Positions 6,124 through 15,836 of a stretch of 17,579 bases of DNA are shown one piece after another. Position 1 is the first letter of the stretch; every line of letters starts with the position of its first letter. The notes below the pieces were generated by a model that saw nothing but the letters and a program-made list of their open reading frames with translations, searched no databases and was not told where the DNA came from. The translations under genes were made by a program, and so were the position numbers. Source of the stretch: a virus (taxonomy: Duplodnaviria > Heunggongvirae > Uroviricota > Caudoviricetes); IMG/VR virus record IMGVR_UViG_2545824714_000011, positions 1 through 17,579 of that record; one strand, 5' to 3'.

Positions 6124-8781
6124 ATGAGCACGAAATTTAAAACCGTTATCACTACTGCCGGAGCCGCGAAGCTGGCAGCCGCCACTGTCCCCGGCGGGAA
6201 AAAAGTAACTCTGTCTGCAATGGCCGTGGGTGACGGTAATGGCAAATTGCCGGTGCCGGATGCCGGTCAGACGAAACTGGTGCATGAGGTCTGGCGTCAC
6301 GCTCTGAATAAAGTCAGCGTGGATAACAAGAATAAAAACTATATCGTGGCTGAACTGGTTGTACCGCCAGAAGTGGGCGGCTTCTGGATGCGTGAGCTGG
6401 GTCTGTATGACGATGCCGGAACACTGATTGCGGTCGCTAACATGGCGGAAAGCTATAAACCTGAACTCGCTGAAGGCTCCGGGCGCGCGCAGACCTGCCG
6501 CATGGTTATTATTGTCAGCAACGTGGCGTCCGTTGAGCTGAGTATTGATGCCAGCACAGTGATGGCGACGCAGGATTACGTCGATGACAAAATCGCAGAG
6601 CATGAGCAGTCCCGCCGCCATCCTGACGCCACGCTGACAGAAAAAGGTTTTACTCAGTTAAGTAGCGCAACAAACAGCACCAGTGAAGAGCTGGCGGCAA
6701 CGCCAAAGGCAGTAAAAGCAGCCTATGACAATGCTGAAAAACGTATGCAGAAAGACCAGAACGGTGACGATATTCCAGATAAGGGCGCTTTTCTGGACAA
6801 TGTTGGCGTTACCAGCCTGACGTTTATGAAAAACAATGGCGAAATGCCGCTTGATGCTGACTTGAATACATTTGGTCCCGTTAAGGCTTATCTTGGCATC
6901 TGGTCTAAAGCAACATCCACCAACGCAACACTGGAGAAAAATTTCCCGGAAGATAATGCTGTCGGTGTGCTTGAGGTTTTTGCAGCTGGCAATTTTGCAG
7001 GCACGCAACGTTTTATCACGAGAGACGGCAATGTATACATGCGTAAACTCGCCAATAAGTGGAATGGCACTGATGGTCCGTGGGGCGTATGGCGTCACAC
7101 TCAATCAGCTACCCGCCCTTTGAGTACGACTATAGACCTGAATACGCTTGGAGCCGCTGAGCATCTTGGTTTATGGCGTAACAGTAGCTCGGCTATAGCT
7201 TCATATGAACGCAATTATCCAGAGGAAGGCGGCTTTGCTCAGGGGACGCTTGAGATCCTCGAAGGCGGGAATTATGGAAGAACGCAACGTTATACCACTC
7301 GTCGTGGGAATATGTACGTTCGCTGCCTTGCGGCAAGCTGGGATGCATCAAATCCGCAGTGGGAACCGTGGTTAAGAGTCGGTCATCAGTCAGAGAGCCG
7401 TTATTACGAAGGTGATTTGAATGTTCTAACCGACCCCGGTATTTACAGTGTTACAGGAAAGGCGACAAACGGTCCGATGCTGGACGCTGCTGGGGCGACA
7501 TTGCTTGGGATACTGGAAGTAATCAGGCGTTTTGATGGTGTATCTGTCTGGCAGCGTTACACAACCACAGGGAAATCAGAAACCACACAGGGGCGCACTT
7601 TTGAGCGCGTCTACGCCGGGAGCACATGGACCGAATGGCGAGAAGTGTATAACTCCTTTTCGTTGCCCCTGAATATGGGGATCGGTGGCGCAGTGGCAAA
7701 ACTCACCAGCCTGGACTGGCAGACCTACGATTTTGTGCCGGGCAGTCTGATAACCGTTCGGCTTGATAACATGACCAATATTCCCGACGGTATGGACTGG
7801 GGCGTCATTGATGGCAACCTGATAAACATCGCAGTTGGTCCGAGTGATGATTTCGGTACGGGGCGCTCAATGCATGTATGGCGCAGCACTGCAAGTAAAG
7901 CGAATTACCGCTTTTTTATGGTTCGCATTTCAGGAAATCCGGGAAGCCGCACGATTACGACAAGACGTGTGCCAATTATCGACGAAGCTCAGACATGGGC
8001 GGCGAAACAGACATTCAGCGGTGGTCTTTCTGGCGAACTATCCGGCAATGCTGCTACAGCAACAAAGCTGAAAACGGCAAGGACAATTAACGGCGTAAAA
8101 TTTGACGGCTCGGCAAATATTGAAGCGTTTCCGCCAGGTGTTCCGCTGCCGTGGCCATCAGATACGCCACCTGCAGGTTATGCAATCATGCAGGGGCAGA
8201 CGTTTGATAAGGCAGCATATCCGAAACTGGCTATTGCCTATCCTTCTGGTGTTATTCCAGATATGCGCGGCTGGACAATCAAGGGCAAACCCGCCAGTGG
8301 TCGGGCCGTATTGTCTCAGGAACAGGATGGCATTAAATCGCACACCCACAGTGCCAGCGCATCCAGTACGGATTTGGGTACGAAAACCACATCGTCGTTT
8401 GATTACGGTACTAAATCAACGAATAACACTGGTGCACATACCCACAATGTATCTGGTACTGCAAATAGTGCTGGCGCACATACACATACCGTTCCATTAA
8501 GGAGACCAAACAGTGGAGGTATGAATTTCGACTGGCTTGATGGTGCATCAAGTGGCACGGTGGTGGGGAATGGAACTGTGCCTTCTTCTGGCGCACATAC
8601 CCACTCAGTATCAGGTACCGCTACAAGTGCTGGGGCACATGCACACACTGTTGGTATTGGCGCTCATACGCACTCTGTTGCGATTGGTTCACATGGACAC
8701 ACCATCACCGTTAACGCTGCTGGTAACGCGGAAAACACCGTTAAAAACATCGCATTTAATTATATTGTGAGGCTTGCATAA
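6124..8781 (+). CDS. H: Tail fibre protein gpH, mosaic with a His-rich (HxH) repeat C-terminal tip domain
   Basis: 885 aa. N-terminus is P2 gpH-like ([28 protein letters not shown]). C-terminal part has repeated GAHTHxVSGTAxSAGAHxHTV units of the type seen in T4 gp37-like fibre tips. Stop overlaps the G start (TAATG). Confidence 0.9.
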
Positions 8782-9398
8782 TGGCATTCAGAATGAGTGA
8801 ACAATCACGTACTGTAAAAATTTATAACCTGCTGGCCGGAACTAATGAGTTTATTGGTGAAGGTGACGCATATATTCCACCTCATACAGGGCTGCCAGCC
8901 AATTCTACAGATATCGCCCCACCGGAAATTCCTGCTGGCTTTGTGGCAGTTTTTAACAGTGAAAATGAATCGTGGAATATTGTTGAAGACCATCGTGGTA
9001 AAACGGTCTATGACGTGGCATCGGGGGACGCGTTGTTTATTTCTGAACCCGGACCGCTACCAGAGAATGTCACCTGGTTGTCGCCAGCAGGGGAGTATCA
9101 GAAGTGGGACGGCGTATCCTGGGTGAAGGATGAGGAAGCAGAAAAACTGTTTCGGATACGGGAAGCGGAAGAGAAAAAGGCAAGGTTGATCCAGGAAGCA
9201 ACAGATAACATCGCAATTCTGCAGGATGCAGTTAATCTTGAAATAGCAACAAACGAGGAAAATTCACAACTGGATTCCTGGAGAAAATACAGAGTATTAG
9301 TGAGTAGAATTGACACCAGTACAGCTCCGGATGTCGTATGGCCAGAGCTGATGAATCAGGGTTATGTGCGGGAGGACGAGCAGATAACTTCAGACTGA
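8781..9398 (+). CDS. G: Tail fibre assembly chaperone gpG (Tfa)
   Basis: 205 aa, directly coupled to H. Conserved Tfa-like C-terminal region ([21 protein letters not shown]). Its 3' end overlaps the convergent acetyltransferase gene by 37 nt. Confidence 0.85.
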
Positions 9399-9925
9399 AA
9401 TTTAGTGATGAATGTTGAATCATCTGGAATATCATGCAATACCAATGCATGAGCACCTATTGTGACATTGTTTCCTATACGCACTTTGCCACCAAGAATG
9501 GTGGCATTACAACCAATGGTCACATTATGTCCTATAACAATATCCATATCATTAAAATCACCACGCAGCCCAATAGTTACCCCTGGTTTTATTGAACAAT
9601 TTTCACCGATTGTTACTTTGTGACCGATAACAACACTGTTGAGATAAGAAATATCAAAGCCTTTCCCTATATTTACAGTTAAAGGGACTGTTACATTATA
9701 TTTATCAAGAATGAAACGTTCTATTTTCCCCGCAATCTTCCGACAGTATCCGCCTTTATCAAAAAGGTATTTGGCTATGCGCCACCAAAATAAATAACGA
9801 ACTCTTCTATGTTTTATTGCGCGAACAATTGCCTTTCGCCAGGAGAAAGGACGCTCGCTACCGATTACTTCATAGTGAATACAATCTTTAAGTTCATTAA
9901 TATTCATATCTCTATTATTCAGCAT
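9362..9925 (-). CDS. Hexapeptide-repeat (left-handed beta-helix) O-acetyltransferase, WcaB/CysE-like; moron
   Basis: 187 aa with tandem hexapeptide repeats ([75 protein letters not shown]). Layout parallels colanic-acid acetyltransferase WcaB and serine acetyltransferase. Visibly AT-rich compared with flanking tail genes. No clear Shine-Dalgarno. Confidence 0.8.
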
Positions 9926-10095
9926 AAGATAATCATGTGACCAATTATTGTAATAATTTTAATGGTATGTTTCTACTGGCTATCCAGCGTGTCTGATGTC
10001 CAGTAACAAATCGTTAACACTGGTGCAATCAAATGGTGAGTGTTAAGACTGGCCACTTATTACCAGGTATGAGGGTATGAGTGGCCAGCATTAAA

Positions 10096-10590
10096 TCAGA
10101 ACAGCCCTTTAACTGAACTGGCCGCGCTGTTAAGGGATGATGTCACTTTATCTTTGAAGCCGGACAGCATATCGCTGAACGATGAGGATTGCAGGCGCTC
10201 CCGCAAATCCTCATCACAGCGTTCAAGGGTCAGTGAAAATTCTATCTTTTTCGCCTTACCGTAGCGATCAAACTCGGAACGGGTCGTATTCGTTTCGGTC
10301 AGGACATACATGCCGTAAATCTGCCCGACGCCATCAATAAGAGGCCAGGGGCGTCCTGTATACGCCTGCGTGGTCAGCAGCGACAGCGACACTTCGCCAC
10401 CTGTAATTTCAGGATAAAGCACACCAGAAAGAACGATGCGATCATCACCTGCACCGATATACTGCCAGCTTGCTGAACGGTTAACGCGTTCATTTTTCAC
10501 ATGCCGCCAGCTTTTGTTTTGCTGTAACTGCTGATGCGGCAGCGTGCGCAGCTCAAAAACAAACATGCCGTAGATCATCATCATGGCCAT
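10096..10590 (-). CDS. U: Tail protein gpU
   Basis: 164 aa. MAMMMIYGMFVFELRTLP...GVLYPEITGG...GMYV resembles P2 gpU as recalled. Follows the tape-measure gene on the minus strand. Confidence 0.85.
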   Translation of the reverse strand: MAMMMIYGMFVFELRTLPHQQLQQNKSWRHVKNERVNRSASWQYIGAGDDRIVLSGVLYPEITGGEVSLSLLTTQAYTGRPWPLIDGVGQIYGMYVLTETNTTRSEFDRYGKAKKIEFSLTLERCDEDLRERLQSSSFSDMLSGFKDKVTSSLNSAASSVKGLF

Positions 10591-10596
10591 GACTCC

Positions 10597-13438
10597 TCAA
10601 TCTTTATCGTAAAAACTGCCACGCCCGGCACGGGCGCGCCGTTCCATTTCTGCCCTGACCATTTCACCGACCAGTTTCGCCAGTTCGCGGGGATTCTGCG
10701 TAACAACGTTATGCAGATGAACATGAATTTCACCACCAAATCCGGAGGCAACAGGCTCCCGGTTACGGGAAGTTACAGGAACTGATGCCACTGGAGATCG
10801 TATGGCCTCCGCCACCGGGCGGGAGCTGGCCGCAACAACAGGGACCAGCGCCGGAGGCAGCGGAGCCGGGACCACGGGTGTGATATTAATTGCGGGGGCA
10901 GGCTTACTGACCTGCGCAATCTTCCGCTCCTGCCACTCTCCACGAACAGCAAGTGCGCGGGGCAGGTTCTTAAAGACAATATCGCCGGGGCCAATGCGTT
11001 TTTTCGTCTCATCAACCAGCTTACCTGTGTTATCAGCAATTTTGCTGAGTCTGCGTAGCGTACCGGTATTGCTGTCTGTGAGCGGTTTGTTGTCTTTGGG
11101 TTTATTACCTCCGGTGCCATTGCCATTTTCCACAGGCTTCGGCGGATTGATTTTCGCAATGTCTCCCTGAAACAAGGCAACCTTGTCCTGAAGAATGGCC
11201 GCACGCTGTGCGTCTTCGATTTTCTTTCTCGCCCTTTCCGCTTCATCCGGAAGGACGCCAAGTTTTTCAAGTATCCACGCCAGCGTATCCAGCAACATTT
11301 TTGCGGGCGTCAGAACAAGCTGTAACGCACCGCCAAGAACGTTACCGAATATCTCGCCAGCACTGGTACATTTATCCAGCGTTTCCTTGCTGGACTCCAT
11401 CGGTGACAGCAGCGATTTAAACCAGTTAAACACCTGGCTGATCCCGCTTCCGATTGTGTCAAAAACAGGACCAAACCGTTCAAAGGTTTCGCGCAACGGG
11501 GCCAGCCGCTCCATAATCCCGCTGAACACCCCGGCATAAAACGCCTTGATGGGATCCCAGTATTTCCAGATAAGAACGGCAGCTCCGGCAAGCGCAGCCA
11601 CGATAAGACCAACCGGACTGAACAACGCCCCGATGGCGCCTCCCAGTAAAGAAACGGAACCCGTCACCATTCCCCACAGCGCAGGCAACACCCTGACGAC
11701 ATTCATTGACCGGGTAAGAATGTCAAAACCAAGACGCAGGGTGGCCAGCTTCCCGTAAAGCACCCCAATAACCAGCGACAACGAGCCAATCGTTGCAGTC
11801 ATTGCCAGCAACGCACCGCCTGCTATCAGTAGCTGGCGCGTCAGTACCGGATGGGCCTGCGCCAGCGCCGTCACCTTTGAGACCACCCGCGTGAGCCACT
11901 GCGTGACAGAACGCAGCGGACCATCAATCAGATCTGCAATGCGGATACGCAGCCCTTCCCATGCACTGCCGAGTGATTTCAGGTCGCCATCAAGGTTATT
12001 GGCCATAACCTTTGCCGTGCGTTCAGCCTCACCGCGTGCGCCCTCAAGTTCTTTTCTCAGTTTGGGCAGGGAGCCGTCCCCCGCCGCATCAACGAGAGCC
12101 ATAAACGACGTGAAAGCCTCTTCCCCGGCAATGTCCTTAAAGAACGATACCCGGTCAACTTCCCCGTATTTACGGGTGGCTTTATAAAGGTCGGCCAGCA
12201 CATCTTCCATCGGGCGCATTTTGCCGTTCGCATCAGAAACTGACACCCCCAGCTCTTTCAGCGCTTCTGCTGCCGCCTTTGGCGGTGATGCCAGACGAGC
12301 CAGGCTGGCACGCATGGCCGTACCAGCATCGCTTCCGCGAAGACCATTATTGGCAAGCACGCCCGCCATCGCTGCGGCCTGCTCAAGCGATACCAAGCTT
12401 ACCCGCAACCGGACCGGCATACTTCATGGTTTCGCCCAGCGCGCGAAAATCAGTATTAGTACGGGTAAACACTGCTGTAAGCGTGTCACCGACCCGGTCC
12501 ATCTGGTCAGCGGAGAGGCCGAACTGCGTCAGGATATTGGAGCCAATATCAGCCGTCTCGCCAAGGTCCACACCACCAGCCAGCGCCATATTAAGAACAC
12601 CGGGCAATGCGGCCTGAATGGCCTGCGGAGTAAAACCAGCCATTGCCAGAAAGCTCTGCCCACTGGCGGCATCACTCGCAGTAAACTGTGTTTCAGAGCC
12701 AAGTTTTAACGCCTGCTCACGCAGCGCCTTAAACTGCGGGCTGTTTTTGTCGATTCGCGTCAGTGCCTGAACGCGGGACATCTCTTTGCCGAACCCGATC
12801 GCAGGCTGCAAAAAACGCCCGGCAGCATAGCCGCCCGCCGTTGCCGCACCAATTGCCAGCGCACCACCTGTTTTCAGTTTTCCCGCTGTTTCCTGCGCGC
12901 GCGAATACCGCTCACGCGCCCGCGTTACACGCGCAAGCGCCTGCCGTTCGCGTTCAAGCTGATTGTTGTACTGTTCGGTGCGTCTGATGGCCTGCTGGAT
13001 GGTGTTATCGCTGCCTGTCAGGGAAATGCCGTGGCGTTTCAGCTCTCCGCCAAGCTCCCGCATTTTCTGAATTTCCCGCGTGCGCGATTCATTCAGGCGT
13101 TCAAGCCGGGTGCTTAACTGCTGCATCAGCTTTTGTTGTTTTTCGCTGAGCACTGTACCCGTGCGTTGTAACTGATTAAGGGCGTTAAGCTGGCGTCGTG
13201 CTTTCAATATGCCAGCATCCGCTTTACTGACAGCGTCACGGGCGCGCTCAAATGAACGCGCCTGACGCTCGAGATTTTTGATCGCCCCCTGCGTTCGCTG
13301 GATGGAGTCACCAAACTGCCCCATCAGGCGGCGGGCGTTTTCGGCAGGCTGGGTCAGCCTGTCAACGGCGCTGAAAGCGACCCGGATATCAAGAGTCTTC
13401 ATTGTCTGCATTCCCGCTGCGAAGTGCCGCCCGCTCAC
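10597..13438 (-). pseudogene. T: Tail tape-measure protein gpT, interrupted by a frameshift (two overlapping ORFs)
   Basis: N-terminal ORF 12383-13438 (351 aa, coiled-coil-rich) and C-terminal ORF 10597-12420 (607 aa, with glycine/alanine-rich membrane-like segment) lie in different frames and overlap at 12383-12420. Read across the junction they would give ...KYAGPVAGKLG / SLEQAAAMAGVLANNG..., a continuous tape-measure-like sequence. True start may be the ATG at 13411 or 13402 rather than the GTG at 13438. Confidence 0.75.
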
Positions 13439-13552
13439 GCCAGCTAACCACTTCGCCGGGCGTCATCATGAAGATTTCGGCGGGCGACCAGTTAAAAATG
13501 GCGGCGATATCTGCCACCAGATCTTCGATGTGCTCAAAGCACACCAGGGTGA

Positions 13553-13927
13553 TTACGCTGCCGTCTCCTGCACGCTCTTCGCGCCAGAGTCTGGCTCGCT
13601 CATAAAATTTACAGCCACAGCGCACAACTGAATAAAATCGCGTGACGACATTTTTTTAATCATCACTTCATCCAGTCGTGGCGAGGTCACGCGAGGCAAC
13701 AGCGTGAACATGGTATCCGCTTTCAGATTCAGCACATCAGACAGCGACAGACCACGCAGGGATCCAGCCTGTTCAATAGCCCCGGTGATCTCCACATACG
13801 TGATTTTTTCGCCACCACGCTCAATTGGTCGGGTCAGTTTTACGCCACGTTCGACAGCCATATCCTCACCTGCCGTCACATCATCCGCCACGGTGTTATT
13901 CCGGGTTTCAGTATCGATGTCTTTCAT
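13553..13927 (-). CDS. E: Tail assembly chaperone gpE, with probable -1 frameshift product E' extending to 13389
   Basis: 124-aa ORF between the tube and tape-measure genes. An A7 run (minus strand, 13651-13657) sits in-frame as AAA AAA A. The -1 frame is open from 13655 down to a stop at 13389-13391, as expected for the conserved chaperone frameshift. Confidence 0.75.
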   Translation of the reverse strand: MKDIDTETRNNTVADDVTAGEDMAVERGVKLTRPIERGGEKITYVEITGAIEQAGSLRGLSLSDVLNLKADTMFTLLPRVTSPRLDEVMIKKMSSRDFIQLCAVAVNFMSEPDSGAKSVQETAA

Positions 13928-13982: not shown

Positions 13983-14495
13983 TCAGCCAAGCCCAAGCGC
14001 GGAACGGATGCGATCGGGCACAATGTCCTTGCCGTCCTTCCGGTAAATGAAGTTCAGCAGGTCAATCTCCCACAACGGGCGATCGTTAACACTCAGCTTG
14101 TAGTAGGTGTTTTTAATGGCGTAAGTGTGTGATGTGGCTTCGCCCTGTTTGGCTTCCCCCATATCAATTTCCGTCACGCGTCCGCGCATTTCGACTTCAT
14201 ACAGGTCGCTTTCTGCATCGGTGTAGTATTCACCCGCAAAACGCAGTAGCGTGCCGTCAATCGTGCCGCCATACTTAAGGAACAGCTCACGAACTGCGCC
14301 CCCCATGACAAAGCTCGCATCAAGCGCGGAGTCGTCCAGACCGAGATCAATACTTACCGCACCCATCATGCCACCACCCCGGTAGCTGTCGGTTTTGCGC
14401 GTCAGTTTAGGCAGGGTGACGGACGTCACCTTACCCACTTCGTTTTCACCATCCACAAACAGCGTAAAAAAGCGAAGATGTTTTGGTACAGCCAT
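13983..14495 (-). CDS. FII: Tail tube protein gpFII
   Basis: 170 aa, similar to P2 FII as recalled (VTLPKLTRK...YRGGGM...DLGLDD). Start overlaps the sheath gene stop (TGATG). Confidence 0.9.
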   Translation of the reverse strand: MAVPKHLRFFTLFVDGENEVGKVTSVTLPKLTRKTDSYRGGGMMGAVSIDLGLDDSALDASFVMGGAVRELFLKYGGTIDGTLLRFAGEYYTDAESDLYEVEMRGRVTEIDMGEAKQGEATSHTYAIKNTYYKLSVNDRPLWEIDLLNFIYRKDGKDIVPDRIRSALGLG

Positions 14496-15679
14496 CAGGC
14501 ACCTCCCAGCACCGCAAATGCGGGACCAAAGAATTCATCAGTAAACGACTGGTAAAGCTCCATGTCTTCCAGCGGAGGAACGGGCGTATATTTGTAGCGA
14601 ATACGCACACGCCCCTGACGTAAATTCGTGGTGCTGTTATCCACCACGTCATACCAGCACGACGCCCCAATCAGTTTCCCGGCAGTCACCAGTGAATCCA
14701 GTTTTGCCCTGATGGCACTGATAACATCCTTCACGTTCGCAGGCGTCAGTGGACTATCGATGGTTTCAAACTGCGCTTCCGCAATTGAATCAGCCAGCAC
14801 CTGTGCGGTTCGGGTATACACCTCAAAGATGTAGGCGTTCGTTTCCGGTGTGCGGTTGCCCCAGAAGCGGAACCCGTTGCGACGAATAATGGTCGTGATT
14901 TCTTTGTTGTTGAGGCTGTTGGCATCACTGTCTTCGGCCTGCAACGACCAGAACACATGACTGGACATCCCCAGCACATTTTTAACCGGAACGTTGGACA
15001 GCGATTTGTGCCAACCCTGCTCATGGTCAATGTACGCACGAAGGCCGCACGCATAGGCAGGCGCGGGGAACGTTTCGTTTTTGCCACTTTTCGGGTTGTA
15101 GGCGATGAAGTCCGGCCATAAGAGCATCACCTCACGTTCGTTGAATTTCTGGCGGTAGGTAATCGCCTCAGCCATCGTGTTACAGCCGTGACATGAGGCA
15201 TACACAAACGCGCGCAGTTTACCCGCAATCACGCACAGGGATTTTGTTACCGCCTCCGTGTCCAGCTCCGGCGCGGCCAGAATACGCGGACGGTATCCGA
15301 TGCTTTCATCCTGCTCTGCAACAAGCAGCGCATACATCCCCGTATAGCTGCCGTCAGATTCAGAACCACCGATAACCAGTTGATCCTGCGTTTTTCCGTC
15401 TTCTTCTTTGTGTTCAGCCACGCGAACGACGATCACCTTTGTGCTCACCTGGTCTGCGATGGCCTTAAGCGCACGATAAAGCGTCCCCGTTGTCCCGCAT
15501 TTTCCCAGCACGTCATTGACGCGGGTCAGCAGTGTGGGCTTGTTCAGCGGGAACAGCTTCGCGTCCGCATCATCCGCCGTTGCCACGATACCGATAACAC
15601 TGGAATCAACATCATTAATCGCTGTTACCAGGTCGGTATTTTCCGTAACACGGGCACCATGAAAACGAGTTTCACTCAT
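14495..15679 (-). CDS. FI: Contractile tail sheath protein gpFI
   Basis: 394 aa, similar to P2 FI as recalled (FPLNKP...KLRAF...WPDF...DHEQGWHKSLSNV...IRRNGFRFWGNRT...YTRTAQV...YTPVPPLE). GGGG Shine-Dalgarno upstream. Confidence 0.9.
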   Translation of the reverse strand: MSETRFHGARVTENTDLVTAINDVDSSVIGIVATADDADAKLFPLNKPTLLTRVNDVLGKCGTTGTLYRALKAIADQVSTKVIVVRVAEHKEEDGKTQDQLVIGGSESDGSYTGMYALLVAEQDESIGYRPRILAAPELDTEAVTKSLCVIAGKLRAFVYASCHGCNTMAEAITYRQKFNEREVMLLWPDFIAYNPKSGKNETFPAPAYACGLRAYIDHEQGWHKSLSNVPVKNVLGMSSHVFWSLQAEDSDANSLNNKEITTIIRRNGFRFWGNRTPETNAYIFEVYTRTAQVLADSIAEAQFETIDSPLTPANVKDVISAIRAKLDSLVTAGKLIGASCWYDVVDNSTTNLRQGRVRIRYKYTPVPPLEDMELYQSFTDEFFGPAFAVLGGA

Positions 15680-15836
15680 AGCTTCAGCCCCTTGTATCCG
15701 TTAAATGATTCGGCAACAATCATCACCCACCACGCGCGTAATCTCACCCCTGCGCCGTTCTCTCGCCACGGCGACAACAAAAAGCAGTAACCCCCTCCGC
15801 ACGCACATGCGACCATGCCGCACAGGGAGGGAACAG

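Follow-up and report, generated by a model that had tools for sequence, protein, structure and literature searches.

The decay of cryptic and defective prophages into pseudogenes is a general phenomenon in Escherichia coli. In the tail operons of P2-type phages, a change of reading frame also belongs to the known expression of the tail genes, in the form of a programmed −1 shift in E/E+E′, between the tube and the tape-measure genes (PMC3091744). This −1 frameshift of P2 gpE/gpE+E′ is attributed to Christie et al. (2002) and Xu, Hendrix & Duda (2004) as they are cited in PMC3091744. It is a frame change in the FI-FII-E-T-U tail operon at a conserved site, located in the chaperone gene upstream of T, which has a slippery heptamer and leads to two functional proteins. 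Among the P2-like coliphages, P88 is inducible and infectious (PMC5285337).

We analyzed a stretch of 17,579 nt of viral DNA (IMG/VR record IMGVR_UViG_2545824714_000011), hereafter the window. It shares with P88 and with the btuC-ihfA prophage of E. coli E1739 the order sheath, tube, E, E′, T, U, as well as the convergence of the sheath-to-U strand with V-W-J-I-H-G. The tape-measure gene of these two elements (proteins AIZ95153.1 in P88 and WP_000853387.1 in E1739) is 2808 nt long, which is the length of the window gene once repaired, and has the same PF10145/TIGR01760 matches, while the DNA identity to the window is 90–100% outside a converted tract. Unlike those of P88 and E1739, the copy in the window is 2 nt short, is split into parts of 339 and approximately 590 aa, and is a recombinant of two alleles (A and B, see below), in a prophage that misses approximately 17 kb.

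A gene of the same family is likewise divided into two CDSs by a frameshift in Escherichia phage 520873 (YP_009965319 and YP_009965318), a prophage that is also defective, with an IS100 in the sheath gene. However, this is an independent event, that is, a 1-nt deletion located 57 nt downstream of the lesion in the window and not at an A/B joint. The equivalent of the P2 E/E′ site in the window would be the heptamer A_AAT_TTT (Table 1), whereas the break in the T gene is present in one genome only, lacks a slippery motif, and truncates a conserved domain. As in the decay of other E. coli cryptic prophages, a large internal deletion and a point frameshift in a structural gene are found together in the window; here, on the other hand, the frameshift can probably be traced to a homeologous recombination joint and not to homopolymer slippage.

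Organization of the prophage remnant

The window carries a defective P88-like (Xuanwuvirus, P2-like) E. coli prophage remnant. The gene order is that of Escherichia phage P88 (Xuanwuvirus, Peduoviridae) (Table 1), without the P88 coordinates ~3205–20186 (~17 kb), a region that holds replication gene A, portal, terminase, scaffold, capsid, head completion, gpX, holin/endolysin/Rz, gpR, and gpS. No other carrier of the junction of this internal deletion was found among 5426 complete E. coli genomes. The intact E1739 prophage could be aligned to the window over 13.2 kb with 98.4% identity, the deletion in the tape-measure gene being the sole indel, and the other 13 tail genes (V, W, J, I, H, G, LbH, U, E, E′, FII, FI, D) are full length, with 99–100% protein identity to E1739.

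Table 1. Features of the window with their positions and strands (position 1 is the first letter of the window)
Feature	Position	Strand	Remarks
Integrase	878–1999		neighboring ORF
Junction of the ~17-kb internal deletion	3743–3750	+	GATT/CTGATT-type microhomology, 4–6 nt
Baseplate V/W/J/I and fiber assembly gene		+	convergent with the minus-strand tail genes
Tail fiber H	6124–8781	+	convergent with the minus-strand tail genes
Hexapeptide acetyltransferase	9362–9925	−	neighboring ORF
gpU tail protein, intact	10096–10590	−	PF06995; 100% over 162 aa; immediately downstream of the tape-measure gene
Downstream ORF	10597–12420	−	607 aa
Tape-measure C-terminal coding part	10597–12392	−	PF10145 profile 112–201; tblastn residues 338–935, window 12393–10600
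A-type backbone resumes	11860	−	informative sites
Solid B-type (L011-like) converted tract	11868–12237	−	94 consecutive B-type informative sites
Patchy A/B recombinant zone	12238–12578	−	~22 parental switches, tracts of 1–20 informative sites; holds the deletion
A-type	12860 to 12582	−	informative sites
Upstream ORF	12383–13438	−	GTG start; the ATG at 13402 is the start common to relatives and gives 339 aa
Tape-measure (gpT) N-terminal fragment	12383–13402	−	339 aa, ends ...GKLGIA*; PF10145 profile 1–112
2-nt deletion site	12388–12393	−	reads CTT GG^TATC^G CTT GAG
E′ part (GpE family, PF06528)	13392–13544	−	51 aa; end overlaps the tape-measure start
gpE-like tail assembly chaperone	13553–13927	−	124 aa; weak PF10109; 100% identical to the E1739 protein
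Candidate canonical −1 slippery heptamer A_AAT_TTT	13604–13610	−	3′ end of the gpE-like chaperone gene; read from sequence
Tube	13983–14495	−	neighboring ORF
Sheath	14495–15679	−	neighboring ORF
gpD	15705–16946	+	neighboring ORF

Over its left 900 nt, the window matches with 100% identity the int end of the E1739 prophage, which adjoins btuC. A search for the left flank by means of a 127-aa ORF returned other genomes only. To the right of the window, the source contig, APZM01000059.1, continues with hok, tRNA-Leu/Cys/Gly, pgsA, and uvrC. This is the leuZ attachment site, where the related prophage in strain 631 is integrated. With a btuC-side left end and a leuZ-side right end, the element is therefore a hybrid that combines prophages of two attachment sites. 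Such flanks imply either that prophages recombined with each other (a chromosomal inversion) or that the contig was misjoined. In both cases, two P88-like prophages must have been present together in the lineage, which offered the opportunity for the exchange between A and B in the tape-measure gene.

A tape-measure gene divided by a 2-nt deletion

A previous reading of the window, made from the sequence only, described two minus-strand tape-measure ORFs overlapping at 12383–12420 in different frames, with a continuous plausible sequence across their junction, and placed an indel of one or two nucleotides near 12386–12395. The ORF list agrees with the overlap, which is 38 nt long, and the frames of the two ORFs differ because 13438 − 12420 = 1018 = 3 × 339 + 1. 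The continuity across the junction is also confirmed, as the upstream ORF ends with ...MKYAGPVAGKLGIA* at an out-of-frame TGA (12385–12383), and the downstream frame reads ...SLEQAAAMAGVLANNG... over the same bases. The N-terminal fragment covers residues 1–339 of the E1739 protein with 97.3% identity (tblastn). In the +1 frame, which has its first ATG at 12420, homology picks up again at ~12392, and the ORF given by the gene caller for the C-terminal part is 10597–12369 (590 aa).

Both halves match PF10145 (phage minor tail/tape measure), one match ending and the other beginning at profile position 112 of 201, with scores (106.6 and 85.5 bits; cut-off 33.2) that assign them to the TP901 family. 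When two bases are put back between 12393 and 12392, an ORF of 2808 nt and 935 aa is obtained, equal in length to the intact relatives, and the repaired protein gives a single continuous PF10145 match (profile 1–201, 200.4 bits) and a TIGR01760 match of 294.5 bits (cut-off 28.8). Besides, the gene is found in the position of a gpT orthologue, between the E/E′ chaperone genes and gpU, and downstream of the sheath and tube genes. The two-ORF arrangement is not a chance ORF pattern, and the ORFs 12383–13402 and 10597–12420 are the halves of one P2 gpT/TP901-family tape-measure gene. In place of the single uninterrupted ORF of ~935 aa of this family (TIGR01760/PF10145), the window has an ORF broken by a 2-nt deletion, and the gene is therefore a pseudogene of the family and not a functional member.

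The comparison with intact tape-measure genes of related prophages that had been suggested along with that reading was done over the whole gene with five relatives, i.e., two E. coli chromosomes, P88, phage 520873, and the intact prophage of E. coli E1739. Exactly one indel came to light along the entire gene; it is a gap of 2 nt in the window, disrupts the frame with respect to the intact orthologues, and falls inside the range that had been proposed. The position of the deletion is ambiguous within 12388–12393 because the bases TATC are shared. The break, at residue 338/339, cuts through the center of the conserved core and lies within the motif K-L-G-I-S-L-E, which is invariant in the aligned relatives, and the longest run of a base at the site is 2 nt. 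Across 12380–12400, the deleted form in the window is GGTATCGCTTGAG. Undeleted in-frame forms at 12300–12500 would read GGNATHTCG, GGAATATCG, or GGTATCAGT.

In total, 168 related loci were gathered from IMG/VR, metagenomes, phages, and E. coli. None of them (0/168) has an indel at the deletion site of the window, and all are in frame there, while 1-nt frame-disrupting indels elsewhere in the same 1.4 kb were observed in five (~3%), phage 520873 among them. These counts suggest that broken tape-measure genes are not rare in prophage sequence, and that this site is neither a hotspot nor a conserved recoding signal. With a query of 801 nt, the spans in the 60 records listed were 801–803 nt, nearly all being 803 nt, and the 802 nt of phage 520873 result from its own separate 1-nt deletion. 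The extra two bases at the site are present in every E. coli and phage record among the matches listed.

The exact 339-aa product was detected in one contig only, APZM01000059.1, in a collection of 15 billion proteins, and this contig belongs to the draft assembly GCA_000356885.2 (a revised version). A gapped 55-nt pattern for the allele, either intact or deleted, had no matches in the genome, metagenome, and viral contig collections. Over ~1 kb inside the tape-measure gene, the best sampled allele is only 87–91% identical; megablast and blastn searches of the 5426 complete E. coli genomes gave no close allele of the junction region (best identity 87–89%), and a homologous-protein search with the repaired 190-aa segment returned short partial proteins only, none closer than 91–97% over part of the query. 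The 90% cluster of this product also contains many "partial" tape-measure proteins of ~340 aa, but these do not have the frameshift, all of them being in-frame truncations at contig ends (…GKLGISL…).

Two parental alleles and the origin of the deletion

The identity of the window to the E1739 prophage is 99–100%, but it drops to 81–89% over ~1 kb in the tape-measure gene. The allele of the E. coli E1739 prophage (L005) is here named A, and that of IMG/VR UViG_2721755712_000003 (L011) is named B. All of the ~1398 aligned bases are equal to either A or B, with the exception of one substitution (12079) and the deletion. Within the tract, 182 of 716 positions (25%) distinguish the two alleles. The number of A/B switches in the window amounts to 48, versus 31 at most in the 144 other alleles.

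A different reading of this mosaic is that the gene represents an old, independently evolved third lineage of tape-measure genes, in which the deletion arose as an unrelated spontaneous slip. It would explain why the best single-allele identity over the 171 nt around the site is only 87%, and why ~20 donor switches are needed even with 144 alleles. A third lineage, however, should have accumulated private substitutions. In a comparison with the 144 distinct alleles, only one private base was counted over 1400 nt of the window, and it lies outside the patchy zone; the two sampled parents account for every other base. We therefore reject a third lineage on the count of private sites and regard it as highly improbable.

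The motif K-L-G-I-S-L-E is encoded by AAA CTT GGT ATC AGT CTT GAA in the A type (84 loci) and by AAG CTG GGA ATA TCG CTG GAG in the B type (~84 loci), while the window reads AAG CTT GG-TATC-G CTT GAG. At Gly-Ile-Ser (GGT ATC AGT in A, GGA ATA TCG in B), the alleles in register show four consecutive mismatches (C AGT vs A TCG). The bases TATC are common to A (positions 6–9) and B (positions 8–11), but 2 nt out of register. Joining the left part of A (CTTGGTATC) to the right part of B (TATC|GCT.GAG) through the shifted TATC gives exactly the observed 16-mer, which replaces 18 nt. Close to this site, the codon TTT (12448–12446) is a hybrid built from TTA (Leu) of A and CTT (Leu) of B, and the otherwise unique Phe in ...TNTDF is thus explained. 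Overall, the tape-measure gene is a two-parent recombinant with the deletion located at an A-to-B joint.

We propose that ~710 nt of a B-type allele (11868–12578) were transferred into a backbone of the A type, which is identical with that of the btuC-ihfA prophage in E. coli E1739, and that the 5′ 340 nt of this tract became a fine patchwork of A and B. In this patchwork, A and B strands may have been joined or repaired in the shifted TATC register with a loss of 2 nt, as deduced from the product, or, equivalently, both 2-nt loops of a misaligned heteroduplex may have been removed. The same process would have made the hybrid TTT codon nearby. As a whole, the explanation that a genuine 2-bp deletion at a recombination joint inactivates the gpT homologue of a defective prophage is one that we consider likely.

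Some observations count against this proposal. The allele is known from one assembly, and no further copy of its junction was found in the genome, metagenome, and viral collections. The patchwork, with tracts of 1–4 sites, is unusually fine, and RecA-dependent recombination is normally inefficient at a divergence of 25%.

Programmed frameshifting

A −1 shift at the heptamer A_AAT_TTT would enter the frame of E′ (PF06528), and the E′-frame ORF spans 13389–13625; this E/E+E′ heptamer upstream of the tape-measure gene is intact. At the tape-measure break itself (GGT ATC GCT TGA), neither a slippery heptamer, nor a CUU_UGA-type site, nor an upstream Shine-Dalgarno-like stimulator was found, and the change of frame is not kept among the homologues. 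Programmed frameshifting at this break was rejected based on the absence of both conservation (0/168 loci) and a motif.

A related possibility is that a prfB-like +1 shift at ATC GCU UGA restores a near-full-length tape measure, in which case the gene would be functional as it is. The shift region is immediately followed by the 0-frame stop UGA, slipping by +1 on GCU_UGA would lead into the correct frame, and the correction of indels through frameshifting has been documented in general (PMC5009743). Against this, the arrangement is seen in none of the 168 related loci, nor in any E. coli record among the matches listed; re-pairing of the tRNA-Ala from GCU to CUU would be poor, and an upstream Shine-Dalgarno-like stimulator is absent; and the product would be GKLGIA-EQ, in which residues of the invariant K-L-G-I-S-L-E are gone. 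Moreover, the known programmed shift of P2-type phages is that of E/E+E′ and not of T (PMC3091744), and it is present upstream in the window. We thus find recoding at this position scarcely credible.

Real mutation or artefact

The sequence-only reading left two alternatives, a real inactivating mutation or an error of sequencing or assembly. Both are kept here, with the evidence in favor of a real lesion. The location of the lesion at a recombination joint, the remnant state of the prophage, and the exclusion of programmed frameshifting go beyond that reading. In the repaired frame, dN/dS is 0.05–0.2 on both sides of the break, and thus not close to 1 as under relaxed selection. As these values give no indication of decay after the break, the lesion is either recent or artefactual.

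If it were an artefact, the gene would be intact in the cell, and the 2-nt gap would have been introduced by sequencing, consensus calling, or assembly, for instance, when reads of two co-resident alleles were misregistered at TATC, the deletion being accepted and the compensating insertion dropped. Placing an A read on a B reference would in fact produce, at this site, a deletion of 2 nt accompanied by an insertion of 2 nt. The draft assembly GCA_000356885.2 is the sole carrier, and its combination of btuC-side and leuZ-side flanks could be a repeat-mediated misjoin, which would imply two copies of the prophage. The absence of decay since the break would also suit an artefact, although a very recent event fits equally well.

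On the other hand, the site has neither the homopolymer context nor the many indels in the contig expected of an artefact: there is no homopolymer longer than 2 nt, there are no further indels in 13.2 kb, and an A7 run at 13651–13657 is intact. The divergence of 25% between A and B is too high for reads of the two copies to pile together. Switches every 3–20 nt would be beyond de Bruijn assemblers, considering how these work, and an assembly based on k-mer graphs could hardly create such a mosaic because those k-mers must be in the reads. The homology of only 4–6 nt at the 17-kb junction is not that of an assembler-type join either. Based on this, an artefact is rather unlikely, and the 2-nt deletion is most likely a real mutation. 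There would be no selection against such a lesion because the element is already non-viable.

Consequences for the prophage and its annotation

In P2-type tails, the tape measure, together with E and E+E′, is required for the assembly of the tail tube and sheath. In the window, the N-terminal product would be 339 aa long and would stop three codons past the shift, while the C-terminal part of 590–600 aa would be left without a dedicated start signal. With the PF10145/TIGR01760 core halved, a functional tape measure is not to be expected, nor, as a consequence, a tail. The same element carries a further inactivating lesion in the form of the 17-kb deletion, and the remnant, without X, R, S, lysis, and head genes, therefore cannot yield phage. 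As the head, replication, lysis, and tail-completion genes had already been lost, the lesion would have been costless to the host and a further step in the decay of the prophage. It is an ordinary inactivating lesion in an already defective prophage.

The two CDSs should consequently be merged in annotations and flagged as one frameshifted tape-measure pseudogene, and not as two proteins or as a recoding site. Both the gene family and the kind of lesion, a frameshift pseudogene in a cryptic prophage, are well known, and the finding raises no new question. What is individual here is the allele, which was found nowhere else, and the indel, which is traceable to an out-of-register recombination joint between alleles that diverge in their synonymous codons. 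It is a small but unusually clean case in which the origin of a frameshift is legible from the sequence, and it shows that genes can be not only shuffled but also destroyed by mosaic recombination between prophages residing together.

The tail-only remnant (V W J I H G, U T E E′ FII FI, D, ogr) might also be regarded as a domesticated tailocin-like cassette with a working tape measure. In a tailocin, the tape measure would have to come either from a low level of +1 frameshifting at GCU_UGA or from two fragments that assemble together. Such a role is not supported for the cassette, and the broken T gene makes it still less likely, so that we consider it very doubtful. It is more likely than this that out-of-register homeologous recombination at synonymous codon-family differences (Ser AGY vs TCN) recurrently frameshifts mosaic phage genes.

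Deletion and hybrid flanks of the prophage

Compared with Escherichia phage P88, the P88-type genome in the window lacks about 17 kb between the early genes and the baseplate gene V, the missing functions being replication, portal, terminase, capsid, lysis, gpX, gpR and gpS. The deletion junction contains a microhomology of only 4–6 nt. Among 5426 complete E. coli genomes, no instance of this junction was found. The left flank of the prophage is the attachment region on the btuC side, while the right flank, in the extension of the source contig, carries hok, tRNA-Leu/Cys/Gly, pgsA and uvrC and corresponds to the leuZ site. The prophage thus combines two attachment sites and is a hybrid, implying either inter-prophage recombination (an inversion) or a misjoin of the contig. 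From K-12 map positions, we take the inversion needed for such a btuC/leuZ hybrid to be roughly 200 kb.

Tail-module remnants of this P88-like phage type are recurrent. A different prophage remnant was observed at the btuC site of another E. coli genome (CP043262.1), comprising D, sheath, tube, E, a 933-aa tape measure, U, invertase and fibre fragments; it has no integrase and directly abuts a 127-aa ORF beside btuC.

Variation in the tail genes

In the tape-measure gene, the window has a Phe codon where allele A (E1739-type) has TTA and allele B (L011-type) has CTT, both coding for Leu. It is a hybrid codon formed by recombination between A and B within the codon, and thus a non-synonymous change arising from two synonymous codons. 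Within the same 1.4 kb of the gene, but at other positions, 5 of the 168 related loci (phage 520873, L014, L033, L107 and L162) have independent 1-nt frame-disrupting indels. The sheath gene of phage 520873 is additionally interrupted by an IS100 insertion.

The gpE-like chaperone gene carries at its end a candidate −1 slippery heptamer of canonical form, which differs from the TTTTTTG of P2. From the heptamer in the window, the −1 frame runs on into a 51-aa piece of the GpE family (PF06528).

Cargo and accessory genes

At the position that in P88 is occupied by a DNA invertase together with an invertible fibre segment, the window carries a hexapeptide-repeat (LbH) acetyltransferase gene, which resembles a moron and possibly has a role in O-antigen or receptor modification. 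The E1739 prophage is otherwise near-identical to the window, but its gpD–ogr interval contains a His-Xaa-Ser (hxsABCD) radical-SAM cargo. The same spot holds a YecA-family gene in strain 631, a DUF3800 gene in L004 and no cargo in the window, so that it is a variable cargo hotspot.

Positions of the features discussed
Feature	Record	Position	Strand
Left flank	window	1-191	
Right flank	contig extension (L006)	1-3823	
Deletion junction	window	3743-3750	
Junction counterparts	P88 (L007)	3205 and 20186	
LbH acetyltransferase gene, between tail-fibre assembly gene and gpU	window	9362-9925	minus
Hybrid codon, TTT	window	12446-12448	minus
Candidate slippery site, A_AAT_TTT	window	13604-13610	minus
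ORFs at slippery site	window	13553-13927 and 13389-13625	minus
gpD-ogr spot	window	16937-16948	
hxsABCD cargo	E1739 prophage (L005)	17365-20762	
1-nt indel	phage 520873 (L003)	3544-3592	
btuC remnant	CP043262.1 (L198)	331-10384
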